From Cyanobacteria bacterium auto_48_18 (GTDB taxonomy: Bacteria > Cyanobacteriota > Vampirovibrionia > Obscuribacterales > Obscuribacteraceae): a stretch of DNA of 64,000 nucleotides. Made by a program: the position numbers and the translations under genes. The notes below the pieces were generated by a model, which saw only the letters and a program-made list of their open reading frames with translations, searched no databases and was not told where the DNA came from. The first letter of the stretch is position 1. Each line of letters begins with the position of its first letter. Where the stretch lies: contig JAVHQC010000033.1 of the NCBI GenBank assembly GCA_036170915.1, positions 224,001 to 288,000 on the forward strand, given 5' to 3'. Shown piece by piece: positions 9,516 through 38,867 of the stretch.

Positions 9516-10670
9516 TCACAAACAATGAACTCCGCCTTCTTGATTAACCAGCGCGCGATAAAGCATCTCATAACGCGGCACAATAAGCTCCGCCGAAAAA
9601 TTTCTCTCTGCGCGTAGTCGCCCAGCTGAGCCCATTTTAGCTCGCAAGGCACTATCGCTAATTAACTTTTCGGCAGCGCGAGCCAGGCCGTTGACGTCAC
9701 CAAAGGGAAGCAGAAATCCGGTTTCATTATCGACAACAACTTCAGGTATGCCACCAACTGCAAAAGCGACACTGGGGCAATCGAAAAACATGCCTTCAAG
9801 AATGCTCAAGCAAAAACTCTCGCTTTCAGAGGTGAATAAAGTCATGTCGGCAGCTTGCAAATATTCTTCTACTTCGAGTACATTTTCTCGGATAATTATA
9901 TTGTTGCTGAGGCCCAGCCGCTCTGCTTCATCTTCAAAATCAGAAAAGTTACCACCAGCTAAAATTACTAATTTGAATGAGTCTCGCGGCTTGATGCGCG
10001 CTATGGCTTCAAGTAATAAATCTATTCGTTTGACGGGTCGCAAATTGGAAGAATGCAAAATCATCACTTCTTCACCAATGCCTAGTTCTCGCCGTGTCTC
10101 TTCTCTTGAATGTTTGGGTGGGTCGGCTTCGAAGAAATTGTGAATTACTTCCATTGGTCCGTCGAAACCAAGCACCTTTTCGCTCTCTGTTTTAAGGTAG
10201 GAAGAGACTGTAGTGACAGCGTCAGATTGAGTTAATGCGTGGTGAATAGCTGGTCCGTAACCGGGATCTCGTCCGAGTAGAGTGGTGTCGGTGCCGTGCA
10301 GTGTGGTGACAACTTTGGGAAGTTGGTCAGGTCGCAACATGCAGCGAGCAAGAATTGCAGCGGTTGCATGGGGCACCGCGTAATGCACGTGCATAATGTC
10401 GAGATTGTGATTACGGCTCACTTCTGCCATTTTTACAGACAACGGCAGGGTGTAATCAGGATATTTAAAGAGGCCGTAGTCGTTCACGGCAACCTGGTGA
10501 AAGTAAATGCGAGGAGTTTTAGCTGCCAGACGAAAGGGCCGCTCGTAAGAGATAAAATGCACTTCGTGACCACGTTGGGCAAGCTCCCGGCCAAGTGTGG
10601 TGGCAATTACTCCGCTGCCGCCAACTGACGGGTAACAGGTAATGCCAATTTTGAGTAAATCGTCTGCCAT
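9516..10670 (-). CDS. bshA: N-acetyl-alpha-D-glucosaminyl L-malate synthase (GT4)
   Basis: Signature motifs KIGITCYPSVGGSG, LFKYPDYTLPL, HVHYAVPHA, TTLHGTD, HSSNLRPVKR, SESESF. Confidence 0.93.
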   Translation of the reverse strand: MADDLLKIGITCYPSVGGSGVIATTLGRELAQRGHEVHFISYERPFRLAAKTPRIYFHQVAVNDYGLFKYPDYTLPLSVKMAEVSRNHNLDIMHVHYAVPHATAAILARCMLRPDQLPKVVTTLHGTDTTLLGRDPGYGPAIHHALTQSDAVTTVSSYLKTESEKVLGFDGPMEVIHNFFEADPPKHSREETRRELGIGEEVMILHSSNLRPVKRIDLLLEAIARIKPRDSFKLVILAGGNFSDFEDEAERLGLSNNIIIRENVLEVEEYLQAADMTLFTSESESFCLSILEGMFFDCPSVAFAVGGIPEVVVDNETGFLLPFGDVNGLARAAEKLISDSALRAKMGSAGRLRAERNFSAELIVPRYEMLYRALVNQEGGVHCL

Positions 10671-10671
10671 G

Positions 10672-11412
10672 CTAAAAATTCCGTGCTCCCTTGCCTGCTT
10701 GTGTCAGCGACTTATAAACCAGCGGCTCATTTGGGTAAAGCGCAATGGCATATTCGATACCAGCTCGCGCACCAAGTAGTCGCGCTCGTGTCATTTGCAA
10801 ATCGATATAATTGCGAGTGGCGCTTTGTGAACCATGCGCTTGCATGGCAGCCGTCCAAGTAGAAATAATTTCTGGTGACGACACGTCAATATAAATTGGC
10901 GTGGTATCTCTTGGCTCGCCATCAGGAGTGACCGTATAGAAAAACAATTGTTCAATGTTATGGGCGGCTTGGTCAATCAGTTCTTTTAATCCGGCGTAGC
11001 GAGCCAGGCGTGAAGCATCTCGCACCAGTTGACCTAACCGTGCATGATCACTGTGTTGGTTTTCCACTGGCGTTGGGGCCATCACAGTTGTTGGCTTGAA
11101 GCGCCTGATCAACTCAGCAAGTTTGATAGCGTGAGCGGCTCGTACTTCCAGGTGCGCGTCACCATCCAGTTCGATAAATTCAATTGTTGCCCCAAGTATT
11201 TTTGCGGCAGTGGTGGCTTCTTGGGTGCGTTCTTCTGAGCTGCCGTTTGTAGCAGCTTCCCCACGAGAAGTCACAACAAAGTGCACCTTGCGGCCGGCGC
11301 TTGTTTCTAAGGCGACAACTCCACCGCAGCCGAACTCAATGTCGTCGGGATGGGCGCCAAAAACTAAAATAGAATTGCTGGTTTTATCAGAGAAGTTCAG
11401 TGTAGGCCTCAT
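10672..11412 (-). CDS. bshB1: GlcNAc-malate deacetylase BshB1 (PIG-L family)
   Basis: GAHPDDIEFGCGG, RGEAATNG, HSDH Zn motif, terminal AHGSQ. Stop lies 1 nt before the bshA start. ATG 11412 chosen; the ORF track starts at 11433. Confidence 0.85.
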   Translation of the reverse strand: MRPTLNFSDKTSNSILVFGAHPDDIEFGCGGVVALETSAGRKVHFVVTSRGEAATNGSSEERTQEATTAAKILGATIEFIELDGDAHLEVRAAHAIKLAELIRRFKPTTVMAPTPVENQHSDHARLGQLVRDASRLARYAGLKELIDQAAHNIEQLFFYTVTPDGEPRDTTPIYIDVSSPEIISTWTAAMQAHGSQSATRNYIDLQMTRARLLGARAGIEYAIALYPNEPLVYKSLTQAGKGARNF

Positions 11413-12157
11413 CAGATCGGTCAATGGTATCACGGGTCAAATAATTGATCTCGGGCGCGTCAGCGTGATTTAAATAGGCTTGTTCGCCCACTCCGGCAAC
11501 ATAATGAGTGCAGTGTAGTACAGATTGCATCCAACCGAGACGACTATCTCGCGTGGGACTGATTTGTCTTTTAGCGAAAGGAGTTAGTGGAACGTCAGTA
11601 AATTGGTCGCCCCCGTCGTGCAATTTAAAGGCTCCATCTATATAACGAGCGCGCACGGTTTCGTTTTCGTATGGCACATCAACAAAGAAATCGGTAATGT
11701 CCACAGCCGACTGCCGCATTGCCGGGTCGCTCGAACGCACTACCCTTATTCCTTCCAGTAAACCCATTTTGTTATACATCTGCAGGCAAAAATCACTGAT
11801 GGTCGAAGCTGATGTGTCCTTAAAAAGATTGATTAATGCATGGTCAACATAGTTGGGTAACTGAGAAATTGTTTTTTCTTGCCAGCCATCCACAATTCTT
11901 TTGAGATAGAGCGGCGAAAATTTGCGCTGTATTTTATTCTCGAAAGCAAAGTTTAGTTGCGCCGGCACACTGGTGGTGCGGTGCGGCAAGATGGTTCTGG
12001 TTTCTCTAGGGTCATGGTCACTATCGTGATAAAAGAAAACGATTTCGCCGCCTATTTCACTTTGCACACGCCTGGCCGCGGTAATTTTTGCCACCAGAAA
12101 GCGCTTAGGGAAAAATCCACAAGGTTGCTGACCGAAACAAATGACGGGAGAGCTCAT
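11387..12157 (-). CDS. short (256 aa) BshC-like putative cysteine-adding enzyme
   Basis: FGQQP...AKITAA...IVFFYHDSDHD and ISPTRDSR...HYVAGVGEQAYL match the BshC motifs TGQQ/HQ...K...VFWxxxEDHD and SPN...R...YVGGPGExxY. AAGGAG RBS; TGATG coupling to the upstream symporter. Confidence 0.72.
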   Translation of the reverse strand: MSSPVICFGQQPCGFFPKRFLVAKITAARRVQSEIGGEIVFFYHDSDHDPRETRTILPHRTTSVPAQLNFAFENKIQRKFSPLYLKRIVDGWQEKTISQLPNYVDHALINLFKDTSASTISDFCLQMYNKMGLLEGIRVVRSSDPAMRQSAVDITDFFVDVPYENETVRARYIDGAFKLHDGGDQFTDVPLTPFAKRQISPTRDSRLGWMQSVLHCTHYVAGVGEQAYLNHADAPEINYLTRDTIDRSDEAYTELL

Positions 12158-13866
12158 CAGGCGTACTCCTTTGCTGTTTTCTGCTGATTGCTTATCAGCG
12201 TCTGTAAAATCAGACTGAAGCATATGCAAGCCACACAGCCGATTAGTGGATACCAGAGATAGGAGATTGTCAAATTGAAGTACATTGTGAAGACAAGCAT
12301 TTGTGCCGTCAGAGCCGCCCAGAAGATAGCACTGCCCTTAACTCGCTTGATGAAGAATCCCACTAGAAATAGGCCGAGCATTACGCCGTAGAAAATTGAG
12401 CCAAGAATATTCACTGCTTGAATCAGATTTTCAGCCAGATTTGCGCATAAAGCGAAGCCGATGGCTACAAATCCCCACAACGCAGTGAACCATTTTGTGG
12501 CAGTGAGCGACTGGGCATCTGTGGCATCTTTTCTGTACAGGTGCCGATAAAAATCGATGGTGCTGCAGGTGCCGAGAGCGTTTAGCTCTGCGGCTTTAGA
12601 GGCTAAGGCAGCGGCAAAGAATGCTGCCATGAGCAAGCCGATTACTCCGTGAGGTAATTCACGCAATATAAATGTGATGAACACGTAATCAGCATCGTTG
12701 GCTTTTGCATCCGGATTAATACGCGCTAGTTCTTTTGTGGCAGCAGTGCGAACAATTTCTGCTTTTTGCTCTGCTGCCGCGGCAGCAACAAATGCTGCGG
12801 TAGCGGCCTCTTTGTTGCCGTTACGCCGTGCTTGCAGCCACGAGCCTAAATGACTTCTTGCCTGGCTGCGGGCAACACTAAAATCATTTTGATAAGAGGT
12901 CATTGTCGGATTATTTTTGTGGGTTTCCAGAAAACGATTGGCGGTGGCATCGAAAAATAATGGTGGTGCTTGAAACTGATAGAAAACAAACATCAGCACT
13001 CCAATAGAAAGAATGCTAAATTGCATGGGAATTTTGCAAACAGCGTTGAACAAGAGCCCGAGCCGACTTTCGCGAATTGAAGACCCTGAGATGTAACGTT
13101 GCACTTGTGATTGATCGGTGCCGAAATAGGAGAGCATGAGAAAGGTTCCGCCTAAAAGTCCTGACCAGAATGTGTAGCGTTCATTCACATTGGTAGAAAA
13201 ATTGACGGCATTGAGCTTGTGAAAACCACCAGCGATATCAACTGTGTCGCTTAAGCTGAGACCAGGTGGAAGTTTAGCGATTAACATGCAAGCAGCAGTA
13301 ATCATGCCGATGAAGATAATACCCAGCTGGTATTTTTGCGTCACCGTAACGGCGTCGCTGCCTCCCATGACGGTGTAAATAATGACAATTACTCCTGAGA
13401 CAATAATGGTCAAATTCAGTGGCCAACCGCAAACACTGGTAAGCACTATGGCCGGTGCATATATTGTCAAGCCCGCACCCAAGCCTCGCTGCAGCAGGAA
13501 AAGACCCGCTCCAAGCAGTCGTGTTTTGCTGTCGAATCGGTTTTCTAAAAATTCGTAGGCGGTATAGACATTTAGTTTTTGGAAGTTTGGCAGAAAGAAA
13601 ATGGCGATGATGATCAGAGCGATTGGTACACCAAAATACACTTGAATAAAACTGAGCCCACCAAGATAGCCTTGGCCGGGAGTTGACAGAAAAGTAATTG
13701 CACTGGCTTGAGTAGCCATTACCGAGAGGCCAATGGCGAACCAGGGTGTTTGTCCACTACCTTTTAAGTATGCTTTTAAATCGCGCTTCTGCCTCGTGCT
13801 CCAGACGCCGTAGATGGCAATACTAAGTATCGAGACAACTAGCACCACCAGATCTAACGTGTTCAT
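12157..13866 (-). CDS. sodium:solute symporter (SSS/SLC5 family)
   Basis: GLSVMATQASAITFLSTPGQGY, TAYEFLENRFD, YFGTDQSQVQRY, about 13-14 TM helices. ATG 13866 overlaps (ATGA) the stop of the small upstream ORF. Confidence 0.92.
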   Translation of the reverse strand: MNTLDLVVLVVSILSIAIYGVWSTRQKRDLKAYLKGSGQTPWFAIGLSVMATQASAITFLSTPGQGYLGGLSFIQVYFGVPIALIIIAIFFLPNFQKLNVYTAYEFLENRFDSKTRLLGAGLFLLQRGLGAGLTIYAPAIVLTSVCGWPLNLTIIVSGVIVIIYTVMGGSDAVTVTQKYQLGIIFIGMITAACMLIAKLPPGLSLSDTVDIAGGFHKLNAVNFSTNVNERYTFWSGLLGGTFLMLSYFGTDQSQVQRYISGSSIRESRLGLLFNAVCKIPMQFSILSIGVLMFVFYQFQAPPLFFDATANRFLETHKNNPTMTSYQNDFSVARSQARSHLGSWLQARRNGNKEAATAAFVAAAAAEQKAEIVRTAATKELARINPDAKANDADYVFITFILRELPHGVIGLLMAAFFAAALASKAAELNALGTCSTIDFYRHLYRKDATDAQSLTATKWFTALWGFVAIGFALCANLAENLIQAVNILGSIFYGVMLGLFLVGFFIKRVKGSAIFWAALTAQMLVFTMYFNLTISYLWYPLIGCVACICFSLILQTLISNQQKTAKEYA

Positions 13867-14006
13867 ATGCCGAACTCCGTTAAAACAATAAGTAGCGACA
13901 CCCACATAACAAAACTGGCTAATACAAACAAGTAGGCACCCTTCCAAGTTTTAGGAAATGGCAATCCGGTGCTTTCTGTTTCTTCTATTTCTTCCAATTC
14001 ATTCAC
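13863..14006 (-). CDS. 47-aa single-TM membrane peptide (SSS-associated small protein), not in the ORF track
   Basis: Manual translation MNELEEIEETESTGLPFPKTWKGAYLFVLASFVMWVSLLIVLTEFGI*. GTGA overlap with the upstream stop and ATGA overlap with the downstream start. Confidence 0.8.
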   Translation of the reverse strand: MNELEEIEETESTGLPFPKTWKGAYLFVLASFVMWVSLLIVLTEFGI

Positions 14007-16552
14007 TTGCCCATAGCAATCATGTTTGCCAGCAGTCTGTATGCGCCTGGTACGCCGGCGGGCAATTGACGGAAAAATGACAGGCCCGTATAGATGTAGT
14101 GCCCTTTGCCATACTGAGCTACAAGCAGTCCGCCCTTGAGGGGAGCTTCGCCTCTATCATTGCAAGCGATCAGGGGAGTAAACTGCGGGTCCCATTGATT
14201 GGCAAAATAAAGGCCTCGCTCTTGTACCCAACCGTCAAAGTCAGCGGCGGTGAGTTTGTTAGGAGTATTCAAAAGTGGATTTTCGGGGGCAAGAAACGTG
14301 ATTTCTGCTTTTTTATCTGTGACTCGTCCGCTGGAAATATGCAGATCATATGGAGCAATCTTTTCAGTCACCAACTTGTCAGGACGATTATATTGAGTAA
14401 TCACCGTGCCACCATTTTTGATGTATTCAAAAATTGCGGGCAAATCGGCAGCGATGCTTTTGCTAACGTTAAAGGCTCTGACACCAATAATAATGGCGTC
14501 GTATTTTTGCAATTGCTCTAGTGTAAGTTTGCTATCGTCCAGTACAGTGACGGTGTATCCCATCTGCTGAAGATTTTGAGTCAGGCTGTCTCCGGCACCT
14601 GGAATATAACCAATGGTCTTACCGCGAGTCTCAAGATCAATACTTACGGCCTGCATCACCGCTGGTGCTTGCATTAGTTGCCTTGGAATATGCAAATAGT
14701 TGATTTCTTCTCGTTTACTGCTGTATTGCACACCATTTATTTCTGCGACAGCCGCTATCTTGGCTGTTGAAGCCTGTGGTGGGGCCGTGATACTAAATTT
14801 GTAATGCTCGCGTTGTCCGGCGCTGCTTAAATTGATTTTGTGGGTGGCTGGAGTAATTTTCCAGTCGCCAGGGCCTTGCAAACTTAGAGTGCCGCTTGAG
14901 CCACCACGCGCTGCTGTCACTTCCACTTCGACCGTTTTTGTGGTGCCAGGGGTGAATACCATGGTCTCGAAGTTGAAATGTACAAAAACCGGCGAAATGA
15001 CATCAATGGGGCGCTTAGATACCTCACCGCTTTCATTTTTTGAGATTGTCACCGGTTGGTCATGAACTATAAGAGTTTGCCCGTTAACTTCAAAGATTTC
15101 TTCAATAGGAAAAGATGGCGCATTCTCAGCAGTTCCGATCAGGTCAGGATTTTCTGCTGCAAATAATCCGGCAGTTCCTTCTAAGCGCAGCCACCACGGC
15201 TGAGCCAAAAGTGTAGACGCCGGGACCGTCACTTCGGTATCCCAGCTGGCCTCTTTCGCTGAATCAACGATGAGCTGTTTGTTAACTTCTTTATCTAGGG
15301 CTGGATAGCGTACGGCAACAAGTTTGACCGTAACATCAGCACTTTTAGAATTTCGCTTTACAACGTGATGAAGCTTGACCTGCTCTCCAGGCAATACTTC
15401 GTTTTGAGAGATGGTAGTTTGAACTTCAAGTCCAAGGCATGCCTGCAGTATGCCATCGAGAAGTGCACGTTTTTCCACAAATACCGAATCTAGTTGTGAG
15501 TGAGGCAGGGCTGCTAGTTGATTTCGCATTTTCAGCAAGGCCGGCACGCTGGCAGACACATCATCAGGCTTAAAGTTGGCGATAATCTCATCTGTCGATT
15601 TTAGAACAGCGTCGCCACCGGCCACTCGCTTCCAACTGGTATCAATACCATCCATAATGTCTTGAGTAGCCGCTTCGCCATCAAGAAGCTGAAAAGATTC
15701 AGTGCGTGGGCCTGGTGCAATTGGCATTTTGAAAGTATCAAAGCCTTGCGTCTTATGCATAGCGCGACTTTCACCGGCGATGTCCACAAAGGCTTTGCCT
15801 GAGACGGCATCTATGCCACCAGATTCGATTTTTAAGATTTTGGCGGAAGTGACTTTATCTCTCTGCCATGGTGACGTGTTCCACAATATGCGCTTGGGCT
15901 GCCAGGGCTCTAGATGCAATTCAGGAAAAGCATTTTTGTCTCCTGCAAGTTTAAATGCTTCCAAAGCCAGCACCGTTGAGGCCGTATGGTGCCCATGGGT
16001 GCCACCAGGGCTGGGTGAAAATCGCGTTATTAGGACATCAGGTTTAAATTGGCGGATGATACGCACCATGTCCGACAAAATTTCTTTTTTATTCCATGCT
16101 TCTAAAGTATCGACATAGCTTTTCGAAAAACCAAAGTCGATGGCGCGAGAGAAAAATTGCTGTGCACCGTCAATGTGTCTTGCCGCCAATAGTTCTTGCG
16201 TGCGTGCGATGCCCAGCTTTGCGCCGAGGTCGGGGCCAAGGACGTTTTGACCACCATCACCTCGTGTCAGTGAAAGATAGGCAGTGCGGTAATTGCGACC
16301 GCGCGATAAATAAGTAAGCAATTCGGTATTTTCATCATCTGGGTGGGCCGCAATATAAAGCGCGCTGCCCATCTGACGAAAACTTTTGAGGTTTTGAAGG
16401 ATAACTGCAGGAGTTTCTTGTTTCATTTCAGTTCCCAGAACCGCACTGCCGAAAAAAGACGCCGCGCAAACAAACGCACAGCTTAATGCGCAAGCTATTG
16501 CACGGCGCCATTTTCTCGATAGTTGCCAATTGAAATGGTCGGCACCAATCAT
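14003..16552 (-). CDS. exported LmbE/PIG-L family deacetylase/amidase with beta-sandwich region and C-terminal class I glutamine amidotransferase-like domain
   Basis: Signal-like N-terminus, AHPDDE, LSLTRGDGGQN, RAIDFGFSK, HGHH. C-terminal IGYIPGAGD...WVQERGLYF...FFRQLPAGVPGAYRL. Confidence 0.9.
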   Translation of the reverse strand: MIGADHFNWQLSRKWRRAIACALSCAFVCAASFFGSAVLGTEMKQETPAVILQNLKSFRQMGSALYIAAHPDDENTELLTYLSRGRNYRTAYLSLTRGDGGQNVLGPDLGAKLGIARTQELLAARHIDGAQQFFSRAIDFGFSKSYVDTLEAWNKKEILSDMVRIIRQFKPDVLITRFSPSPGGTHGHHTASTVLALEAFKLAGDKNAFPELHLEPWQPKRILWNTSPWQRDKVTSAKILKIESGGIDAVSGKAFVDIAGESRAMHKTQGFDTFKMPIAPGPRTESFQLLDGEAATQDIMDGIDTSWKRVAGGDAVLKSTDEIIANFKPDDVSASVPALLKMRNQLAALPHSQLDSVFVEKRALLDGILQACLGLEVQTTISQNEVLPGEQVKLHHVVKRNSKSADVTVKLVAVRYPALDKEVNKQLIVDSAKEASWDTEVTVPASTLLAQPWWLRLEGTAGLFAAENPDLIGTAENAPSFPIEEIFEVNGQTLIVHDQPVTISKNESGEVSKRPIDVISPVFVHFNFETMVFTPGTTKTVEVEVTAARGGSSGTLSLQGPGDWKITPATHKINLSSAGQREHYKFSITAPPQASTAKIAAVAEINGVQYSSKREEINYLHIPRQLMQAPAVMQAVSIDLETRGKTIGYIPGAGDSLTQNLQQMGYTVTVLDDSKLTLEQLQKYDAIIIGVRAFNVSKSIAADLPAIFEYIKNGGTVITQYNRPDKLVTEKIAPYDLHISSGRVTDKKAEITFLAPENPLLNTPNKLTAADFDGWVQERGLYFANQWDPQFTPLIACNDRGEAPLKGGLLVAQYGKGHYIYTGLSFFRQLPAGVPGAYRLLANMIAMGK

Positions 16553-16564
16553 TTTTAATTTACT

Positions 16565-17434
16565 TTATTTCAGTGTAGACATGAGCTCGGCATTCAATCT
16601 TACGTAAGCAGCGTCGTTGGCTTTCTCAGCTAATTCGGTTGAATGTTTCGAAGCTTCGATGGCACCAGCTTTATCACCCAGCTTGGCTAGAATTTGGGCT
16701 TTAACATAAACCATATAGAAGGCGTCGCGCTCTGCCACAGCAGCGTCAATCCATTTTTTTGCTTGCTGCAAATCTTTGCCATGAGCATAGTAGAACTGAG
16801 CTGCCTGGAAGTATGGCTTTTCTTTCGCATCAGATGCCATTACGGTTTCAATTTGCGAAAGTAATTTGTCGGCGAAATCAACTTCCAATTTGATTGGCAC
16901 TGTTGTTTTGTCCCATGACAAATTTAAGAGTGATGAATTTTCGCGAATGTCATTGAATTCAATTGTGAATGTTTCAAGTGCCTGAGTCACTTTCACTGGC
17001 TTGGCTTTAAAGCGGATGATGTCTGACTTTTCATCATACTTATAAGCTCCCCATTGTTCAGCGCCTTTGTTGATAATGATGGTCCATTCGTCTTTGCCTG
17101 GAATAGTCATCAATGCATAAGTTCCAGCAGCAATATCATTGCCGTTTAACTTAACGGGAGTGCTGAAAATCACTTTAGTCGCTTGGTTGGCACCAGTGCG
17201 CCAGACTTTATCAAAAGGCACAACGCCGCCGAAAATGTCACGACCTTTTGCGCTTGGTCGCGAATACGAAATTTCAATATCGGTCAGCCCGACTCGTTGC
17301 TTGATTGTGCAAGCGGGGCTAGGAGCTGGAAATTGAAGCTTTTGTTCAGCAGCAGGTTGCGCCATCACTGTGGAACCGAATAGCATTGCGCAGCCGGTGG
17401 CGGCTATTGAAAGAGCGATTGTTTTGGAATTCAT
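16565..17434 (-). CDS. DUF2911 domain secreted protein with C-terminal TPR-like helices
   Basis: Signal peptide; PSP...IEISYSRPSAKGRDIFGGVVPFDKVWRTGAN...GTYAL. Confidence 0.9.
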   Translation of the reverse strand: MNSKTIALSIAATGCAMLFGSTVMAQPAAEQKLQFPAPSPACTIKQRVGLTDIEISYSRPSAKGRDIFGGVVPFDKVWRTGANQATKVIFSTPVKLNGNDIAAGTYALMTIPGKDEWTIIINKGAEQWGAYKYDEKSDIIRFKAKPVKVTQALETFTIEFNDIRENSSLLNLSWDKTTVPIKLEVDFADKLLSQIETVMASDAKEKPYFQAAQFYYAHGKDLQQAKKWIDAAVAERDAFYMVYVKAQILAKLGDKAGAIEASKHSTELAEKANDAAYVRLNAELMSTLK

Positions 17435-17476
17435 CTGGTTATCCTGGGTTGGGGTCTACTTAGTACATAGTTGTAC

Positions 17477-17980
17477 TTACTTGTTTTTTGCTTCTAAAAA
17501 TTTGCGACGCTTGTTTTCACGTTCTGCTTGCAGCGCGGGGCTAATTGAACATTCAGTATTCTCGAAAGAGAAAATCTCGCCGGACGGGATATTCCAATTT
17601 TGGTCAATGATCTCTCCCGTTTTTTTATACTTTAGTTCAGCTGCCACTTCTTTTCCTGCGCACGATGAATCCCACTTCAGGGCCCAGGTTCTAAATGCCA
17701 GTAAGACGGCATCAAGCTCTTTGCCTTTTTCTGTGGCGTGGTATTCATAGCGGTCAGGGCGGGTGCTGTAGCGTCGTCGTTCGATAATTCCGTCTTCTTC
17801 AAGTTGTTTTAGTCTGCTAGAAAGGCAGTTTGATGCCATGCCTGTCTGCGCTTGAATTTCTTCGAAGCGTCGCACACCCATGGCCAGCTCTCGCATAATC
17901 AGCAAGGCCCAGCGGTCACCAACTGCACAAAGTGCTCGTGCAATCGGGCAAATACTGTCAAAATTATCGTCCCAGCCCAC
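17477..17980 (-). CDS. HxlR/DUF24 winged-helix transcriptional regulator
   Basis: CPIARALCAVGDRWALLIMREL..G.RRFEE, LSSRLKQLEEDGII, YEYHATEKGKEL. Carries the conserved N-terminal Cys. Confidence 0.92.
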   Translation of the reverse strand: MGWDDNFDSICPIARALCAVGDRWALLIMRELAMGVRRFEEIQAQTGMASNCLSSRLKQLEEDGIIERRRYSTRPDRYEYHATEKGKELDAVLLAFRTWALKWDSSCAGKEVAAELKYKKTGEIIDQNWNIPSGEIFSFENTECSISPALQAERENKRRKFLEAKNK

Positions 17981-18012: not shown

Positions 18013-18053
18013 ATTATACAAGTGCCTTTAGAATTTAAAGGCACTTGTGTAAT
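18013..18053. promoter_or_regulatory. 18-bp inverted repeat overlapping a minus-strand TATAAT upstream of the HxlR gene (candidate operator)
   Basis: ATTATACAAGTGCCTTTA-GAATT-TAAAGGCACTTGTGTAAT with 1 mismatch. TATAAT on the minus strand at 18013-18018, about 33 nt upstream of the GTG start. Confidence 0.6.
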
Positions 18054-19136: not shown

Positions 19137-20372
19137 TCAGCCGCTAAACGCTAGAGCCTTAAGTGAAGGTATTCTTCTGCCATCAGCCCATTGCAGTTTT
19201 TCTAATACTTTGGTTAGGCCGTCGCCGCTCCAAGACCAGTGGTGCAGCACAATCATTGCTTGTTCTGCAGTAAGAAATCCTTCTCTGGTCAAAAGCAAAC
19301 ATCGCTTGCTGGCGTCCAGGGCTGAATGGTTGATGATACCTGTTTTCAGCAACCTTTCTTCAAGGGCATCGCGATCATCTTCTTGATGAGTAGGAAGGTG
19401 TCCAAGTCTTCTGATATCGTAGGCGGTGACTAGCCCAGAAAGCCGCAGCAAATGATAAAGAGTGATGTTGCCATCATATGGGTCAGCTTCGCGCATCATT
19501 TCTTTTAGCGCTTTAGATAGCGAAACATTTTTTGCAAATATAAGCTTAAGTGCGCGTGCGGCTCTATCTGGTGTTAGCTCATGCTTGGCAGTCATAGTTT
19601 GCAGGCGCACAGCCGACGCAATTAGTGCAGCGCTGAACATGCCGCTTTCGACAATGTATTGACCAAGTGTCTGCGCCATGCCCTCTTTTTCTTGTTTAGC
19701 ATAAAAGACTTTCAGATCGTTATCCATTAACAGACCAGAGAGCAATAACAGTTCATCTAAGCGCAAGTAAGGCTCCGGGGAATTAAGCAGAGCAATGTCA
19801 CAGCTTGAGTTTGTGGTTAACGTCAAGCTTGTTGCTGAGTTGAGTGCAGCTATCGCTTCGCTTCTTTCAGTTCGGCCACACCTGATTAAGGATTGCGCAC
19901 TCAGGGCGGCACCTAACAAACTAGGAGATAGCAAGCCCTGAAGTACAAGCACTCTATTTAGTGGCAGGCCCACATGTCTGCTGAGACCGTGAGCATCGTC
20001 AATACTTTTCTGGGTAAGAATACCCGCTTCAATTAAGATTGTGCCAAGGTTGTCCTGATCGCGATTAACGTCGCCTTCCCAGCCCAGTTCTTGCAAAGCC
20101 GTTGCTAACGAAGTTTTGCTACCGGCAACCCTTTGTAATGCTCTGATGGCTACGTCGTACGCAAGCACATTTTGCCGAATCAGATTCTGCAATGTCAGTG
20201 CCGCTTCCATGGTTTTTTGACGGCAGAGGCCCATCATCACCAGCACGCGTCCGGTTGGCAAACTATTTTTGTGGGCGATGCATAGAACCTGACACAGTTG
20301 CTCAATTTTAAGCAAACCTGCTTTGTAAAACAGCTCGCCCAACAATGCCCTGTTATCAATGCCTGCTGTCAT
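19137..20372 (-). CDS. protein made of tandem MshEN-like repeats
   Basis: Repeated LGxxLxxxGxxxxxxLxxAL motifs: LLGELFYKAGLL, TGRVLVMMGL, NLGTILIEAGIL, RLDELLLLSGLL, TLGQYIVESGMF. ATG 20372 preferred. Confidence 0.75.
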   Translation of the reverse strand: MTAGIDNRALLGELFYKAGLLKIEQLCQVLCIAHKNSLPTGRVLVMMGLCRQKTMEAALTLQNLIRQNVLAYDVAIRALQRVAGSKTSLATALQELGWEGDVNRDQDNLGTILIEAGILTQKSIDDAHGLSRHVGLPLNRVLVLQGLLSPSLLGAALSAQSLIRCGRTERSEAIAALNSATSLTLTTNSSCDIALLNSPEPYLRLDELLLLSGLLMDNDLKVFYAKQEKEGMAQTLGQYIVESGMFSAALIASAVRLQTMTAKHELTPDRAARALKLIFAKNVSLSKALKEMMREADPYDGNITLYHLLRLSGLVTAYDIRRLGHLPTHQEDDRDALEERLLKTGIINHSALDASKRCLLLTREGFLTAEQAMIVLHHWSWSGDGLTKVLEKLQWADGRRIPSLKALAFSG

Positions 20373-20580
20373 AGTTCGTGAGTTTCCGAAAGTGAAGGTG
20401 AAAGTGAAAGTAGATAGGCTTGTCCAGTTAATAGAGCAGCGCTTTCCATCAAGTGCCCTAGTATTCATCTTGCATGATTACCGCTCGGCAAAAGTTAGGG
20501 TATGCCTATATCTTTGTCAGGGTAAGCCCATAGATTTGGTGACCATATATAATTGAAGGCCCGCTCTGAGCAAAAAACTG

Positions 20581-22368
20581 ATGTTGTCGATGAAGTTCTC
20601 GAAGATTCTGCCTCTGGCCTTGTGCGTATCGTTTTCCGCCGTGTTTACTCCATCTTGCCTGGCAGATCAGATTGATGCTATGGACGTCACAGTGGAAGCG
20701 GCTAAAGATAGTTCACTCCATGTAGTCGAGAAAATTTCCGCTAATTTTTCTCAACCCAGGCATGGCATTTTTCGTATCATGCCCGTTAAATACTCGCGCT
20801 ATGGAGCTGACTATACGCTTGATTTTCGGCTCAATTCGGTGCAAGACGAAAATAAACAGAAGATTGCACATCAGATAAGCAAACAGGGCTCGGACGTCAA
20901 TATCAAAATCGGTTCACCTGATAAAGAGGTGCTCGGCAAGCAGACCTATGTGATCGATTATAATTTGCATCGTGCTTTTAATTTTTTTCAAAACAAGCCA
21001 GAAATTTACTGGAACGTCACAGGCGACCAGTGGCCCTATGATATTAAAGAGGCCAGCCTGACTCTCAAACTGCCAGAGGGGGTCAGTGCAGGCGACGTTC
21101 GCACTCAGTCTTTTCTTGGTCAGCGTGGTACCGATAGTAGTGCCGGCATGGTCGAGAGAAAAGAAGGAAACGAGCTCTTCTTCCAGGCGTTTGAAATTAA
21201 GCCAGGCAACGGTATGACAGTGGTGGTAGGTTTGCCTGAAGGTTCAGTGTTGCCACCTGCGGTGGGCCTTCAAATTGGCTGGTTTCTAGTTGACTGGTGG
21301 CCTGCTATTTTGATTCCGGCATTCGCCTTTGGAGGGCTTTACGCCACGTGGCGACATCTTGGTAGTGATGAAGAACCAACTGGTGCTATTGGAGTAGATT
21401 GGCAGCCACCCAAAGAGTTGTCGCCGGCAGAAATGGGAGTAATTGTTGACGAGCGTGCTGATCTTAACGACATAATTTCAATAATTGTAGATATGGCAGC
21501 TCGCGGCTATCTACAAATTATCGAAATCGACAAACCTGGCTTCTGGGGCTCGTCTAAAGATTATCAACTGCGACGTACTTTTTCGTATAACGGTCGTCAA
21601 ACTTTCACCAGATCAATTGATGATTTTGATATCAAGCTTTTTGAGCGTCAAATGCTGCAATCGATTTTTCAATCTGGCAGCGGCGGTTGGCGCGATGATG
21701 TCACTCTTTCTGAGCTTACGCAGACTTCAGTCATCGATCTCGACCTGATAAAACAACAGCTCTATGGCACCATGGCTGAGAACGGTTGGTTTAAAGCCAA
21801 TCCTGAAGCCGTGCGCATCACATATAGATCTATTGGTGGGGCGCTTGTGGTGGTGCCTTTCTTTCTAGTCTTGACCACTAACCTGGGCGGAGTGCCCTTA
21901 GTTCTTGGTACTCTGTTTTCAGGCATATTGTTTTTCTTTTTTGCTGGTGCCATGCCTGCCCGTACATTAGCGGGTGTGCGTTTGCGACGGCAATCGCTGG
22001 CCTTTGCGCGCTTCGTTGATAAGGCCGAAAGACAACGAATTAAAGTCATGGCTGATAAAGATCCCACGATTTTTGGTCGCCTGCTTCCTTATGCACTAGT
22101 TCTGGGAGCCGCGGATCGCTGGGCCAATGCATTTGAGGGTATTGCTGTCACTGCGCCGTCATGGTACGTCAGTTCAGATCCTAGTTACATGTTCAATCCG
22201 CACACATTCGTGCACGATATAGGCTCGGGCGTCGACTCTATGGGCACAGCTATAAAAACGTCTCACCAGGCATCTCAACAGACTTCTTCTGCGGGGTCAG
22301 GGGGTAGTGGTTTTTCTGGTGGTTCGAGCGGGGGTGGTTTTGGTGGGGGAGGTGGTGGGTCCTGGTAA
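20581..22368 (+). CDS. DUF2207 domain membrane protein
   Basis: RHGIFR, EIYWNVTGDQW, PPKELSPAEMG, DMAARGYL, FGRLLPYALVLG and Gly-rich C-terminus GGGGGSW. Confidence 0.9.
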   Translation: MLSMKFSKILPLALCVSFSAVFTPSCLADQIDAMDVTVEAAKDSSLHVVEKISANFSQPRHGIFRIMPVKYSRYGADYTLDFRLNSVQDENKQKIAHQISKQGSDVNIKIGSPDKEVLGKQTYVIDYNLHRAFNFFQNKPEIYWNVTGDQWPYDIKEASLTLKLPEGVSAGDVRTQSFLGQRGTDSSAGMVERKEGNELFFQAFEIKPGNGMTVVVGLPEGSVLPPAVGLQIGWFLVDWWPAILIPAFAFGGLYATWRHLGSDEEPTGAIGVDWQPPKELSPAEMGVIVDERADLNDIISIIVDMAARGYLQIIEIDKPGFWGSSKDYQLRRTFSYNGRQTFTRSIDDFDIKLFERQMLQSIFQSGSGGWRDDVTLSELTQTSVIDLDLIKQQLYGTMAENGWFKANPEAVRITYRSIGGALVVVPFFLVLTTNLGGVPLVLGTLFSGILFFFFAGAMPARTLAGVRLRRQSLAFARFVDKAERQRIKVMADKDPTIFGRLLPYALVLGAADRWANAFEGIAVTAPSWYVSSDPSYMFNPHTFVHDIGSGVDSMGTAIKTSHQASQQTSSAGSGGSGFSGGSSGGGFGGGGGGSW

Positions 22369-33923: not shown

Positions 33924-36704
33924 ATGATTGCTGAAGCTGAAGTGAAAAGCCCACTGGACAAGCGTTTCTGGTTTGCCGCTGCATTTCTTGCCACTCTCGT
34001 CATCATTGGTTATGGCTATTGTCTCAGCGGATATTTTCTCGCGGATGATACCTGGCAGGTGCAGTTCGCTTACCGCGTAATGCACGGTGAATCACATCTT
34101 TTATTCGACAATTTTAAACAGAGTTATTTGAGCCTGCCGGCATTAGATTTTTACCGGCCCTTGCTTGGAGTTACTTACCTTTTCGACTATTTGCTCTATG
34201 GCATGAATGCCTGGGGCTATTATCTAACCAACTGCATTTTTGCTTACCTGGCGGCCCTCTTTTTCTTCATGTCAGTGCGGGCACTGACAGCCGATTTTGG
34301 TACAAATCGATCTTTTTACTGCGCACTATCTGCGGCGGCGTTGTTCGCCTCTTCACCCTTGCACTGCGAAGACATCTGCTGGATTTCTGGTAGGGCCGAT
34401 CTTCTCGCGGCGGTATTTTATTTGCCGGCTCTTTATTTGGCAATTTTGAGCTGGCGATCTAGCAGTAGCAAACACTCTGTGGAGCTGTATCTCTGGTCGA
34501 TTTTATTCTATGTGCTCTCGCTTATGAGCAAAGAGTCGGCTGTGGGATTGCCTGTGCTGGTGGCAGCGTTGCCTTTAGTATGTCTGCCTGCGCTGCGCGC
34601 TAATTCAAAGTCGCAGGCGTCGTCGTCGTCTCAAGCAAGCGCTTCAACTGACACTACCGGTAGTGCAGATTCTTCTTCTTCTTCTTCTTCTTCTCCAGTT
34701 TCAACTGCTTCAGCTTCAACATCGCGTAAAAGCAAGCGGGCGAAGAAATATAATACCGCCGGTGATGCTGCTCCAGTTTCGGCCCCCGATCCGGTTTTAG
34801 CTCCTCAATCGGTAGAGCCCCAGCCGGCTGTCGGCGAGTTGACTAAAAAAGAACTATTCAGCCGCTGGTGGAGATTTTCTCTGCCTTATTTTTTAATACT
34901 GATTCCTTACTTTATTATCCGTACCATTTCACTGGGTAGCCCCATTGGTGGTTACACCGGAGACATGGGTAAGGCACTCTCTCGCTGGTTGTTCTATCGC
35001 TGGGTCGACCCGACAACGCTCTGGCGTCTGATTTTCCCGCTGCCCCATGTCATTTTTCCCGATCCTCATATTTACATTCAGGTTGTTGTTTGTCTCTACG
35101 CTGCCATATTTGGGCTGCTGATTGTTCGACTGGTGACTCAGCGTTTAAATTGGAGCGGTTTGCTTTTTGTGGCAATCATGGCTTTCCAGGCGCTGCTACC
35201 GCTGTATAAACTCTGGGGTCTTGATCAAGATATGCACAACCAGCGTATCTATTATTTCCTCACCATGGCTCTGGCTTTGTTTTTGCCCTGGCTGGTTTTT
35301 GCACCTAAACTAGCCGATCGCAAAGCTGCAGCGGCCAATTCGCTGGCTTTACCAATGGGTGTAGAGGCCTTACTTGATGCGGCGGCAGCATTTTTGTTTG
35401 GCACCATCGCCCTCATATTTGCCTTTGTCAGTTTTGCCGTCACAGCCAGTTGGGTGGACGCCGGCACGCAGGTAAAGGCGCTCAGAGCGCGCTCTATTGA
35501 GCTTGTGGCAGCAAATGAGAAACCGGTTATGGTGCTTGGTATTCCCAAAGGTTTGGCTGCCGCTCATATTCTTTTATGCGGTTTTTGCTTCAAAGAATTG
35601 TTTGAACCACCTTTTACAGAGAAGTCTATTTCAGACCGACTGCTCACATTTCATAGCTGTGTAGCGGGGCCAGATGAGCCCATCAATACCACACGCTTTA
35701 AAGAATGTTTGCTTGATCCCAATGTGACCGGGCCATTTTTGTGGTCAACCACTAAAAAAGCGTATACGAAAATTGAATATGACAAATTGGTGCGCGACTT
35801 CACCAAGCCGATTGAGTTAAAAGTCTCGGCCAAACCTGTGCTTGGTCAATTTGCTCCACTGCCTGGCGTGCAAGGAGCAATTATGGTTGGCACCAAAGAC
35901 GGTGTCGATGCCCTGGCCCTGCGTGAAATCAAAAAGGGTGGTGGCATGGTTGCTGAAGGTCTGGATATTAATCCACTGGAGGCTGACTATCTTGGCTTTG
36001 ATATCGCACTGCAACCGGGGTACACGGTGTATACGGTTTCGGCCCATTTTGATGATAAAGAACCCGGCTCTCCTTTTGAAGGCGACGCTCAAATTGTGCA
36101 GGCAGTTGCGGTGGAGCCTACCAAAAATGTACCTGATAAAGACGACCGCGATGCTGATGGAAATTTGAAAATGAAGTGGGTCCACGTCAATATGCACGTC
36201 TCGCATTTTTGGCGCTGGTATGCCCATAAAAAGATTCGTCGTATGAAGTTGGCCTTTACTGAGGCGGACCACCTGGTAGTCAAGAATCTGCGCTTTTTCA
36301 GTGATTTCGATTATGTCCCCAAGCTAGCCATGCAAGGTCTGAAACGCCGTGCCAGTGGAGAGTATGTGGTGGGCAAAGAACCAATAAAAGTTTGGCTTGA
36401 TTCGTCTTATATTCCGCAGTCGAAGCGCATGCAGCTTGTGATTACCTATGTAAACGAGTCGTTTGACAATTTCCTCTTTTTTGATGAGCAACCCGGCAGT
36501 TCTGTGGAGGCCGAGCGTTTGGAATGTGCGCATAATTCTGGCGTGGTGGAAATTCCCAGCAAGCTTTACCAGGCCACTGGTTACTACGAAATCAAAGCCA
36601 GGGCTCTTGACGAGGGTGGACTGCCAGTGGGCGACTGGTCGGATGTAATCACCATCTATCGACCGTCTGATAAGGGTCCTGCGCCTTACTACGCCAGCAA
36701 TTAA
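33924..36704 (+). CDS. GT-C fold membrane glycosyltransferase (TMTC/ArnT-like) with large C-terminal soluble domain
   Basis: FLADD, FYRPL, SPLHCEDICWISGRADLL, SKESA, RIYY motifs; more than 10 TM helices. Confidence 0.8.
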   Translation: MIAEAEVKSPLDKRFWFAAAFLATLVIIGYGYCLSGYFLADDTWQVQFAYRVMHGESHLLFDNFKQSYLSLPALDFYRPLLGVTYLFDYLLYGMNAWGYYLTNCIFAYLAALFFFMSVRALTADFGTNRSFYCALSAAALFASSPLHCEDICWISGRADLLAAVFYLPALYLAILSWRSSSSKHSVELYLWSILFYVLSLMSKESAVGLPVLVAALPLVCLPALRANSKSQASSSSQASASTDTTGSADSSSSSSSSPVSTASASTSRKSKRAKKYNTAGDAAPVSAPDPVLAPQSVEPQPAVGELTKKELFSRWWRFSLPYFLILIPYFIIRTISLGSPIGGYTGDMGKALSRWLFYRWVDPTTLWRLIFPLPHVIFPDPHIYIQVVVCLYAAIFGLLIVRLVTQRLNWSGLLFVAIMAFQALLPLYKLWGLDQDMHNQRIYYFLTMALALFLPWLVFAPKLADRKAAAANSLALPMGVEALLDAAAAFLFGTIALIFAFVSFAVTASWVDAGTQVKALRARSIELVAANEKPVMVLGIPKGLAAAHILLCGFCFKELFEPPFTEKSISDRLLTFHSCVAGPDEPINTTRFKECLLDPNVTGPFLWSTTKKAYTKIEYDKLVRDFTKPIELKVSAKPVLGQFAPLPGVQGAIMVGTKDGVDALALREIKKGGGMVAEGLDINPLEADYLGFDIALQPGYTVYTVSAHFDDKEPGSPFEGDAQIVQAVAVEPTKNVPDKDDRDADGNLKMKWVHVNMHVSHFWRWYAHKKIRRMKLAFTEADHLVVKNLRFFSDFDYVPKLAMQGLKRRASGEYVVGKEPIKVWLDSSYIPQSKRMQLVITYVNESFDNFLFFDEQPGSSVEAERLECAHNSGVVEIPSKLYQATGYYEIKARALDEGGLPVGDWSDVITIYRPSDKGPAPYYASN
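34671..34694 (+). repeat. (TCT)8 in-frame microsatellite encoding poly-Ser
   Basis: Read directly from the sequence, inside the Ser-rich insertion of the GT-C gene. Confidence 0.9.
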
Positions 36705-36800
36705 ACTGGCTGAAAACGTTGTCAGTGTTACCAATGAGCTTGATCCGTAGCTTTAATTCACCGATAATCACATATCAGCAGATTCAGGCAAAGGTGCCAC

Positions 36801-38867
36801 ATGTATCGTCCGAAGAAATACGTACGTCTCGAGCCTCTGTCGCGTACACCAAGACTGGCCGATATTCGCAATCTTCTTGAAGAAGGGCGCAAGTCGCGTT
36901 CGTGTACCATCGAGCAGCCCTGGAAATCTGAAAAGATGAAACTCGCCTTCAGTTTGACTGTGCGGGTAGAACTGGGTAGTACCAGCGAGCCAATCTGGAC
37001 GCTCTATGAAGGTGAAGGTAATAAATCGCGGGTCATGTGGAGTACCGGATTCGGCGATGTAGAGCTGCTCTATGACGTGCTTACATTGTCATTGCCGTCT
37101 GATGGGCCAAATATTTTTGATCCTAATTCGAGGCCTTCAAATTATGCGCCCACGGGCAGTACAACTAGCTCGCGCAGCGGTCAGCTCTTTAATCAGGCTG
37201 AAGAAGCCGTAGCCGAAAGTCAAAGTTTCAGCGCCAATAGCAGCTCAACATCAATGCCGGCGTTATCGAATAATGCAGGCGAACGACCCGCTTCTTTTTA
37301 TGAGTCTGGAGTTCATGCAGCCAACGCCAGCGATGCGTCTACAGCGTCGGGTTCGTACCCGCCTCATCTGGTCGAGAGTGAATTCTTTATTGCCGACCAA
37401 CCGACTGCTTTTGATAAACAGCAGCGCGAAAGTAAGATGCGCACCTCTGAATTCATGATCGAACCGACCAATGTCTCCATTGAGGTTGGCCAAGCACGCA
37501 CTGAAAGTCAGATGACTCCTCCAGCACACCCTGACATTGCCAGCCAGTTTCTATCTCAAGAAATTGCTATACCAACCCAATATTTCGAACAGCAAGCTGC
37601 TCAGCAACAAGCTAGTTCCCAGTCTGCACAGGCTTATCCGCCTGGTGGCCAGCCGCTTCCCCCAGGCCTACCCAGTCAAACTGGTCAACATCCAGTAAGC
37701 CAGCCTCCACCTGGTTATGCCTATCCACCTGGCTACAATTATCCACCGGTTCCCGGTCAACCTTATCCGCCGCAACCACCCTATCCTGTGCCAGTGCCAC
37801 CAGGTTATGTCTATCCACCAGGTTATCCGCCAGCAAATTACCCACCGGCAAATTATCCGCCTGGTTACGGTTACCCTCCAGGCTATCCATATCCTGCTCC
37901 CGCTTCCACTGTGCCTCTAAACTACGGCCCAGGTGGTGTGACGCCTCCAGATCCGTATGCTAATAATTTGATGATGCCCAATCCGGAGCTCATGAATAAG
38001 CGGCCTATGGTCATGCTAGGCACTTTCCTGGTTGAAGCTGGCCTTGTACCTAAAACCACTATTGATGCCGCTTTACAGGTGCAAACTCTGGTTAGTCAGG
38101 GTACACTATCGGCAATGAAAGCAGCTGAAGCCGTGCGTCGCGCGCACCAGCGTGGTGGCTTTGTCGAGCCTGAGAATATTCAATCAACTGTTCCTCCCAA
38201 CGACTCTGTGGTGCGTGTAAAACCCCAGCTAGGTCAGGTTCTTGTCATGGCAGGTATTATTTCAGCTGCTCAATTGAAAGCTGGTTTACGCATGCAAGAT
38301 GCAATGCGCACTGGCGCACTGACTATGGAACAGGCAGTCACTACTTTGCATAATGAATTAGGCAATGAAGCTAAGCCGAAAGTGTCGGAGCCTAACGAAG
38401 CTGACAATATTCAAGCGCGCAGTCAAACTCGCAGCCAGACGGGCTCAGGTCAAAGCGCAAGTCAGTCTACAAGCCAATCTAAAAGCCAAGCTACAAGCCA
38501 GTCTATCAGCCAGACTATGAGTCAAGCGATCAGTCAAACAAACTCGGTACCTGCCGAAGTCGAAGAACCAGATTCAGAAGAAGTGAAGAAGGCACTGACT
38601 TTGCTTACGCAAGTTGGACTGCTTACCGAAACTGATCTAGAAGCTGCCAGTCGCGTGCGCACCACCCGTGGTGGTGAGCTGACCAGAATATTAATGGCTG
38701 CGGGCAAGTTGGATAAACTGACTATCGAGGCGGCCACAGCATGTCAGCGTTATATTGACGGCGGCCAGTTGCGCGCAGATCAGGCCATAATGGCACTTCT
38801 GTATTGTCAGCGCATGCGCGTGCCATTTGAAGAAGCAACTAGCGAACTCAATTTAGATACTAAATAG
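36801..38867 (+). CDS. unrecognised N-terminal domain, PPGY-rich disordered linker and MshEN-like repeats (paralogue of 27607-29190)
   Basis: MLGTFLVEAGLV, QLGQVLVMAGII, terminal YCQRMRVPFEEA. The ORF track ends at 38867. Confidence 0.8.
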   Translation: MYRPKKYVRLEPLSRTPRLADIRNLLEEGRKSRSCTIEQPWKSEKMKLAFSLTVRVELGSTSEPIWTLYEGEGNKSRVMWSTGFGDVELLYDVLTLSLPSDGPNIFDPNSRPSNYAPTGSTTSSRSGQLFNQAEEAVAESQSFSANSSSTSMPALSNNAGERPASFYESGVHAANASDASTASGSYPPHLVESEFFIADQPTAFDKQQRESKMRTSEFMIEPTNVSIEVGQARTESQMTPPAHPDIASQFLSQEIAIPTQYFEQQAAQQQASSQSAQAYPPGGQPLPPGLPSQTGQHPVSQPPPGYAYPPGYNYPPVPGQPYPPQPPYPVPVPPGYVYPPGYPPANYPPANYPPGYGYPPGYPYPAPASTVPLNYGPGGVTPPDPYANNLMMPNPELMNKRPMVMLGTFLVEAGLVPKTTIDAALQVQTLVSQGTLSAMKAAEAVRRAHQRGGFVEPENIQSTVPPNDSVVRVKPQLGQVLVMAGIISAAQLKAGLRMQDAMRTGALTMEQAVTTLHNELGNEAKPKVSEPNEADNIQARSQTRSQTGSGQSASQSTSQSKSQATSQSISQTMSQAISQTNSVPAEVEEPDSEEVKKALTLLTQVGLLTETDLEAASRVRTTRGGELTRILMAAGKLDKLTIEAATACQRYIDGGQLRADQAIMALLYCQRMRVPFEEATSELNLDTK

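Follow-up and report, generated by a model that had tools for sequence, protein, structure and literature searches.

The question raised by this locus is whether one operon holds a complete route to a low-molecular-weight thiol, and what a large hydrolase and a symporter do within it. The window is a 64,000-nt stretch of contig JAVHQC010000033.1, and positions given here are window positions unless another locus is named. Its host is a non-photosynthetic member of the Obscuribacterales, a relative of cyanobacteria, and the host genome (G000) is 86% complete. Eight co-directional open reading frames (ORFs), all on the minus strand, were read from the window sequence in the order HxlR, DUF2911, PIG-L, a small peptide, a sodium:solute symporter (SSS), mini-BshC, a BshB1-like protein and BshA (Table 1). 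The junctions between them were, in order, 42 nt, 12 nt, GTGA, ATGA, TGATG, a 26-nt overlap (counted from ATG 11412) and 1 nt; on re-reading, the eight genes and all seven junctions were as the original prediction had given them. HxlR, DUF2911, PIG-L (twice) and SSF were all over the Pfam cut-offs. The operon is a real conserved system and a variant of bacillithiol metabolism. On balance, it likely makes bacillithiol (Cys-GlcN-malate), and its hydrolase and symporter are predicted to recover the sugar-malate core, in five steps. Taken separately, bacillithiol synthesis by the operon is quite probable, and the recovery arm has about an even chance. Beyond the original prediction, an internal start codon of the hydrolase and repeated loss of bshB1 were found.

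BshA scored 408 bits against TIGR03999 (cut-off 273.7), so the identity first proposed for this protein stands. Moreover, it matched the solved BshA 5D00 with an E of 4e-85, and the motifs GGS, HYA, HGTD and N-x-R-x-x-K were invariant with the annotated BshA of Brevibacillus and Bernardetia. In the first step, BshA would join GlcNAc to malate. The BshB1-like protein belonged to PIG-L in Pfam, its best Protein Data Bank (PDB) matches were 2IXD and the BshB1 6P2T, and the motifs AHPDD and H-x-DH were retained; it would strip the acetyl group in the second step.

The third enzyme was tied to BshC by its fold, and sequence searches alone gave no link. PF10079 gave 13 bits against a cut-off of 27 (E 0.06), no NCBIfam model matched, and the best E among 139 BshC members was 0.003. 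Searches of the PDB with phmmer and hmmsearch returned nothing significant, and the comparison with full BshC by hhalign gave a probability of 0.4, with a hidden Markov model (HMM) score inside the shuffle range. The AlphaFold model of mini-BshC had a pLDDT of 96, and its top Foldseek match was BshC 4WBD (E 4e-10). VIA-align over 48,161 chains also placed 4WBD best, with a Z of 20.3 and an rmsd of 2.7 over 240 of the 256 residues, spread over BshC 82-520, ahead of class I LysRS (Z 14.4). The original prediction of an atypical BshC was thus corroborated by the fold match, in which the identity was 16%. Furthermore, by eye, GQQ, a Lys 15 residues on, DHD-x-x-E and R..Y..G..E..Y had the same or nearly the same spacing as in the 521-aa BshC of the Verrucomicrobiota genome G135, and this common motif set was invariant in the mini-BshC family.

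According to the available part of PMC4360819, BshC consists of a Rossmann core and a coiled coil that is required for dimerisation. Mini-BshC cannot hold this coiled coil, because it has 256 residues and the longest helix of its model has 17. The homologues comprised 6805 matches within a length range of 140-448 aa; no long, well-covered form was found among the best 150 in the 50%-identity library, and look-ups of the clusters of 10 distant homologues gave at most the name 'hypothetical protein', with no taxon. Full-length BshC was not found in the five mini-BshC genomes tested (G000, G061, G254, G266 and G282). Accordingly described, mini-BshC has the fold and motifs of BshC and would have a BshC-like role, and it is not a BshC member by sequence or domain content. 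In the third step, it may add cysteine with the Rossmann core alone.

Compared with the Bacillus subtilis pathway of BshA, BshB1 and BshC (4WBD; TIGR03998/PF10079), the operon likewise has a BshA over its cut-off, a BshB-like PIG-L protein and a third enzyme of BshC fold, and it has the C-B-A gene order of the canonical G135 operon. Unlike in that pathway, the third enzyme has 256 aa where about 520-540 are usual, escapes sequence models and is too short for the coiled coil, bshB1 is dispensable in 10/44 genomes, and neither YpdA nor Brx was found in G000. The product might not be bacillithiol if mini-BshC adds another acyl group, or if GlcN-malate is the endpoint and is used as a solute. The 16% identity to BshC and the score of the BshB1-like protein on TIGR04001 (134 bits, cut-off 182.5) would suit such a product, as would the lack in G000 of YpdA over its cut-off and of any BrxA/B or BrxC match, so that the established redox partners of bacillithiol are either absent or not recognised there. 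Against it, the motifs that the family has in common with full BshC do not vary, mini-BshC occupies the position of BshC in the order seen in G135, and the BshA motifs are canonical. A product other than bacillithiol is consequently regarded as unlikely.

The distribution of the genes was studied in three sets: the best 80 of at least 562 stretches with mini-BshC relatives in species genomes, which were mostly from Verrucomicrobiota and Obscuribacterales; 107 genomes of the order; and an even draw of 201 Verrucomicrobiota genomes. The conserved unit consists of seven genes: DUF2911, the hydrolase, the 47-aa peptide, SSS, mini-BshC, the BshB1-like gene and BshA, with HxlR excluded. Among the 55 loci with room on both sides, mini-BshC was preceded by DUF2911, hydrolase and SSS and followed by BshA in 51, and BshB1 was present as well in 46; DUF2911 lay upstream of the hydrolase in 57/62 loci with room. 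This gene order is far beyond chance. The linkage of the envelope block (LmbE-SSS-DUF2911) to bsh genes that had been predicted was therefore recovered in two phyla (51/55 loci), whereas of the eight-gene synteny the seven genes were upheld and HxlR was not, as it was linked in just 1/60 loci with room, the near-identical L016.

Within the order, 44 genomes had mini-BshC, and these included every genome with the hydrolase (43) or with BshA (42); the sole mini-BshC genome without the hydrolase was 65% complete. None of the three was found in the 3 genomes of the second Obscuribacterales family, and a draw of 300 other genomes of the host phylum gave no mini-BshC. In Verrucomicrobiota, the same 10 genomes held mini-BshC, hydrolase and BshA, one of the 10 being the centre of the draw. 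The eleventh BshA genome was G135, with a canonical operon of 521-aa BshC, BshB and BshA and no hydrolase; the hydrolase is thus not needed for synthesis everywhere. At five mini-BshC loci without the envelope block (four split operons and one short contig), the hydrolase was encoded elsewhere in 5/5 genomes.

The hydrolase contained PF02585 and a weak NEW3 match. Its nearest named family was Mca, with an E of 2e-12 and 47 bits against a cut-off of 277. HPDDE, RxxE and HG[HQ]H were present in 88/88 distinct homologues. Like the amidases Bca/BshB2, Mca and LmbE, it has the H-x-DD and distal His metal motifs, and Mca is its nearest NCBIfam family. Unlike them, it has 849 aa, a signal-like N-terminus and about 550 residues more than PIG-L amidases, with a NEW3-like part; HG[HQ]H replaces H-P-D-H, there is an internal start, and it lies far below every named family cut-off. 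Its tail matched in the Atlas only unnamed clusters of Bacteroidota and Acidobacteriota. By hydropathy, residues 21-39 formed a hydrophobic segment. With regard to possible Tat export, RR occurred in 13/36 and 21/50 hydrolase signal regions, compared with 0/71 for DUF2911. In the fourth step, the exported long form may cut the amide of bacillithiol, of its S-conjugates or of GlcNAc-malate outside the inner membrane.

The symporter matched SSF and TIGR00813, and its best PDB matches were SMCT1, 5NV9, SMVT and NIS, ahead of glucose carriers. Organic anions and acid sugars are the substrates of its closest relatives of solved structure, and a carboxylated sugar would fit as substrate. The gene of the 47-aa peptide is real and conserved: W21, Y25 and V28 were invariant in 54 aligned homologues, with one hydrophobic helix at 24-42. 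No Pfam family matched it, including DUF485 and DUF4212. As expected of an SSS small subunit, its gene lies directly upstream of the symporter and is conserved there, and such a subunit is what the peptide likely is by analogy. In the available part of bioRxiv 10.1101/072470, the precedents for such subunits (ActP with DUF485/YjcH, and the VC_2705 family with DUF4212) rest on cofitness. Like these pairs, the present one has a small hydrophobic gene just upstream that overlaps the symporter start. Unlike the DUF485 and DUF4212 subunits, the peptide has one helix, matches neither family and is deleted in some genomes, namely G031 and those of a single subclade within genus g54; the symporter itself is nearer to SMCT1, 5NV9 and SMVT than to the ActP or VC_2705 type. 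The symporter and its 47-aa partner would, also in the fourth step, import GlcN-malate for re-ligation, a role suggested by protein family, gene linkage and the class of transporter. For DUF2911, there was no usable look-alike in the Atlas and the literature search gave no functional clue.

The hydrolase, peptide, symporter and DUF2911 could instead be a separate uptake module for another N-acetylated sugar that was transferred together with the bsh genes. Distant large PIG-L proteins do stand in sugar-uptake contexts: full-length hydrolase relatives of about 28% identity occurred with ROK regulators, argH-like genes and ABC transporters, and no bsh genes were seen in the two regions viewed. 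Moreover, one transferred operon gives co-occurrence even without a common function. This separate module is decidedly improbable, considering that the hydrolase was retained in the 5/5 genomes without an adjoining envelope block and in G245, that it was never found without mini-BshC in 107 + 201 genomes, and that in three genomes without bshB1 it is the only PIG-L candidate for deacetylation. Distant hydrolase relatives were also seen on Aminobacter and Bacillus plasmids (L147 9001-11367 and L148 8001-10508), in a second conserved context.

The loss of bshB1 bears directly on the role of the hydrolase within a bacillithiol operon. In 10/44 Obscuribacterales genomes (five of genus g16, G306, G279, G282, G283 and G312), bshB1 was absent from an otherwise contiguous operon. 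Its presence changed state 4 times on an 84-locus tree, once in Verrucomicrobiota, and G312, outside the tree, is an extra case. An all-PIG-L search covered six of the ten genomes. In G279, G282 and G306 (93-95% complete), the large hydrolase was the sole PIG-L match; G312 had one further PIG-L, of 29% identity, and G266 and G029 had one each in a glycan cluster. The latter two were considered as BshB1 and rejected owing to their location among glycan-synthesis genes. Because BshA and mini-BshC are intact in genomes without bshB1, the hydrolase is the obvious substitute there, and it can likely stand in for BshB1, which would explain the repeated loss of bshB1 and of no other enzyme gene. Staphylococcus aureus BshB and Mca are dual deacetylase/amidase PIG-L enzymes, and in S. 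aureus a single enzyme fills both roles, according to the available part of PMC5790435.

A second start codon may place the hydrolase on both sides of the membrane. Distinct hydrolase genes with an intact N-terminus were compared, truncated loci being dropped. An in-frame ATG behind the hydrophobic core was found in 36/36 Obscuribacterales genes compared with 4/52 other homologues, mostly 26 codons before AHPDDE. In this window, initiation at Met43 would give an 807-aa form without a signal peptide. Shine-Dalgarno (SD) strength was taken as pairing energy to an anti-SD motif. The internal ATGs had a mean of -4.9 kcal/mol, with 56% at -5 or below; the corresponding means were -5.0 for 47 mini-BshC starts (duplicates included) and -1.8 for 413 gene-body ATGs, of which 6% were at -5 or below. 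In the signal of DUF2911, used as a control, scattered ATGs occurred in 13/36, and just 1 was strong. The simplest reading is that there are two forms, which in this window would have 849 and 807 aa, and dual initiation is slightly favoured on these grounds. In the fifth step, the second start behind the signal peptide in Obscuribacterales would then likely yield a cytoplasmic hydrolase.

The available part of PMC13515050 describes SpaO and CheA as bacterial N-terminal proteoforms from internal in-frame starts, with predicted localisation pairs in Salmonella. As in these proteoforms, initiation at an in-frame ATG that has an SD element of its own would leave the hydrolase without its targeting sequence. 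Unlike them, its dual start is predicted from family-wide conservation, and it concerns a thiol-pathway enzyme.

Two other explanations of the internal ATG were weighed. It could by now be the main start, with the enzyme mostly cytoplasmic, the signal decaying and the symporter scavenging external thiol or precursor. The upstream start codon is commonly GTG or TTG and has little SD before it, the internal ATG has an SD score typical of true starts, many database gene calls of homologues give 802-821 aa, and the pN/pS of the signal segment was 0.48 (10 close pairs), above the 0.27 of the DUF2911 signal (body 0.07). Yet the signal frame was open in 36/36 genes against 5.9 expected, with stops in the two other frames in 32 and 25 of 36, the hydrophobic core is retained, and repeat expansions before the internal ATG stay in frame. 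The signal frame is still coding, and a decaying signal seems quite improbable. Such expansions (SSSASK, RTDS) between signal core and internal ATG were observed in the hydrolase N-termini of L062, L134 and L038.

Alternatively, the internal Met and GGAG could be by-products of a conserved G-x-x-M peptide at a signal-peptidase site, the exported form alone being made. The Gly would fit position -1 of a cleavage site, all copies come from one ancestor, and the SD is weak in several genomes and moderate in this one. However, the Gly three codons upstream of the ATG was GGA in 21/24 genes, compared with 414/2068 (20%) in the gene body, and this codon bias is synonymous. In addition, AGGAG-N6-ATG was intact where long inserts shift it far from the hydrophobic core (L038, L040, L062 and L134). 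A by-product is thereby rather unlikely, and the two-form hydrolase is the reading carried forward.

As for the origin of the operon, the Obscuribacterales copies formed one clade, with a support of 0.77 in the three-gene tree and of 0.987 and 96% in BshA trees. For BshA, BshB1, mini-BshC and the symporter, their identity to the copies of Verrucomicrobiota was 44-75%. One horizontal transfer is suggested by the single clade, by this identity and by the absence from the rest of the phylum sample. The block would thus be common to Verrucomicrobiota and one Obscuribacterales family by horizontal transfer, with no direction assigned. The midpoint-rooted three-gene tree and the outgroup-rooted BshA tree nested Obscuribacterales inside Verrucomicrobiota, and a direction from Verrucomicrobiota to Obscuribacterales was considered on this basis and dropped, as the approximately unbiased (AU) test (38/87 BshA rows) gave p 0.67 and the constrained tree scored higher. 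In the BshA tree, which had been proposed as a test of horizontal transfer, the single clade fits one probable transfer, and no direction was supported. Within the family, g16 and g54 were monophyletic in the operon tree and g1, g13, g21 and g46 were not; later exchange or poor resolution is possible. Operons were also found in records titled Binatia, Baltobacteraceae, Angelobacter, Acidiferrales and Bifidobacteriaceae (L018, L021, L056, L059, L060 and L061); they nest among Verrucomicrobiota sequences and may be further transfers or mislabelled bins.

A bacillithiol operon had been called unexpected in a cyanobacterial relative. The host is such a relative, and in G000 none of the gshAB, bacilliredoxin and ypdA genes named in the original prediction was over its cut-off: no GshB passed, and GCS2 and PF04262 were unmatched. 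The contrast with glutathione users is weaker than supposed, because the host is non-photosynthetic and GshB was over its cut-off in 0/107 genomes of the order; 15 of these held sub-cut-off relatives of about 200 bits. GCS2 was present in 11/107, including all 8 genomes of genus g46, so a glutathione-like route may exist in g46. ATP-grasp genes that resemble GshB, scoring about 200 bits and often numbering three to five in a genome, were seen at L096 and L097 (G025 and G019) and in g46, adjoining an N-formylglutamate-amidohydrolase-like and a DUF1704-like ORF (labelled by eye). At L012 (G000:C33:102664-106350), the source of the weak GshB matches, on the same contig as the operon, three ATP-grasp-like genes stood with an aspartate/glutamate-racemase-like ORF, again by eye.

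Several further points weigh against a bacillithiol operon with a recovery arm and a dual-form hydrolase. The case is computational, and export of the hydrolase is predicted from hydropathy. The genomes and sequences are kin, so the co-occurrence counts are not independent, and the AU test does not reject monophyly of Verrucomicrobiota for BshA. G135 shows canonical bshCBA with the hydrolase absent. The internal start does not track bshB1 loss, being present in all Obscuribacterales; its SD is moderate in this window's copy (-4.2 kcal/mol) and weak (0 to -3.1) in the g16 clade without bshB1. The Verrucomicrobiota locus L085 lacks both bshB1 and the internal ATG, and its genome carries three other PIG-L genes; in such a case, either another PIG-L would have to act, or GlcNAc-malate would have to leave the cell and be taken up again once deacetylated. 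A wider claim, namely an undescribed trans-membrane arm in which the dual-form hydrolase and the symporter recycle GlcN-malate and fully replace BshB, with mini-BshC as a minimal cysteine ligase supplying the thiol of Obscuribacterales and part of Verrucomicrobiota, is tentative and rather doubtful.

The features of the locus are listed in Table 1.

Table 1. Features at the thiol locus, with window positions, strand and basis of assignment.
Feature	Position	Strand	Basis
BshA, GlcNAc-malate synthase (384 aa)	9516..10670	-	TIGR03999, PDB 5D00 match, motifs
BshB1-like zinc deacetylase (246 aa from ATG 11412; 253 aa from GTG 11433)	10672..11412	-	PIG-L, motifs
Mini-BshC (256 aa), putative cysteine-adding enzyme, half BshC length	11387..12157	-	fold match, motifs
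Sodium:solute symporter SSS (569 aa)	12157..13866	-	SSF, TIGR00813
Single-helix membrane peptide (47 aa), likely symporter small subunit	13863..14006	-	conserved residues, hydropathy
Large PIG-L/LmbE-type zinc hydrolase (849 aa), signal-like N-terminus	14003..16552	-	PF02585, motifs, hydropathy
Internal in-frame ATG of hydrolase (Met43, nt 16426) with upstream GGGAA	16424..16440	-	conservation, Shine-Dalgarno statistics
DUF2911 protein (289 aa), signal-like N-terminus, weak C-terminal TPR	16565..17434	-	PF11138 E 3e-56
HxlR-family regulator with Cys11, local neighbour outside conserved unit	17477..17980	-	PF01638
19-bp inverted repeat ending TATAAT, upstream of hxlR; candidate terminator or operator	18013..18053		folding z = -5.6

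HxlR had been predicted as part of the thiol system, which its linkage in 1/60 loci does not support; as an operon regulator or conserved part it was rejected for the same reason, and it is a recent neighbour. It was absent from the regions fetched of the same-genus genomes G002 and G004. Its N-terminal Cys may be a sensor. The palindrome AGTACA-N4-TGTACT in the hxlR-DUF2911 gap was rejected as an operator, being absent in L016. The inverted repeat is kept in L016; its last six minus-strand bases are TATAAT, 33 nt before the hxlR start, and it may be a terminator of the upstream gene or an operator. GC and GC3 did not set the operon apart from its surroundings, and a promoter and terminator scan gave counts no higher than chance.

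Elsewhere in the window, 19137-20468 (-) codes for a 443-aa protein with MshEN-type c-di-GMP-binding motifs (NF053729), relatives of which lie near the operon in L016, L037, L040 and L062. Two DUF2207 membrane proteins were found at 20581-22368 and 41961-43811, the second adjoining lemA (41211-41843). At 60923-63969 (-), a VWA_CoxE gene adjoins a DUF5682 gene extending in the direction of the end of the window, and two long ORFs (926 and 688 aa) at 33924-38867 (+) had no Pfam match at E 1e-4.

Among literature titles and abstract openings, a half-size BshC, this operon or bacillithiol of Melainabacteria or Obscuribacterales was not found, most subscription papers and all supplements being outside this scope; Data Set S1 of PMC6282198 may be informative about the distribution. 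The available part of PMC5790435 states that the BshC reaction is not known and has not been reconstituted in vitro, and that bacillithiol import and export are unclear. A natural 256-aa BshC core would be a simpler object for the first question, while for the second the symporter and hydrolase together provide a specific candidate. The internal start, conserved across the family, lends itself well to a clear test of whether a single gene serves two compartments. Standard annotation overlooks the operon because mini-BshC is below every cut-off. In the part of PMC6282198 available, no low-molecular-weight thiol is documented or predicted for Verrucomicrobia; judging from the operon, one is to be expected in some of the Verrucomicrobiota and in about 40% of Obscuribacterales genomes.

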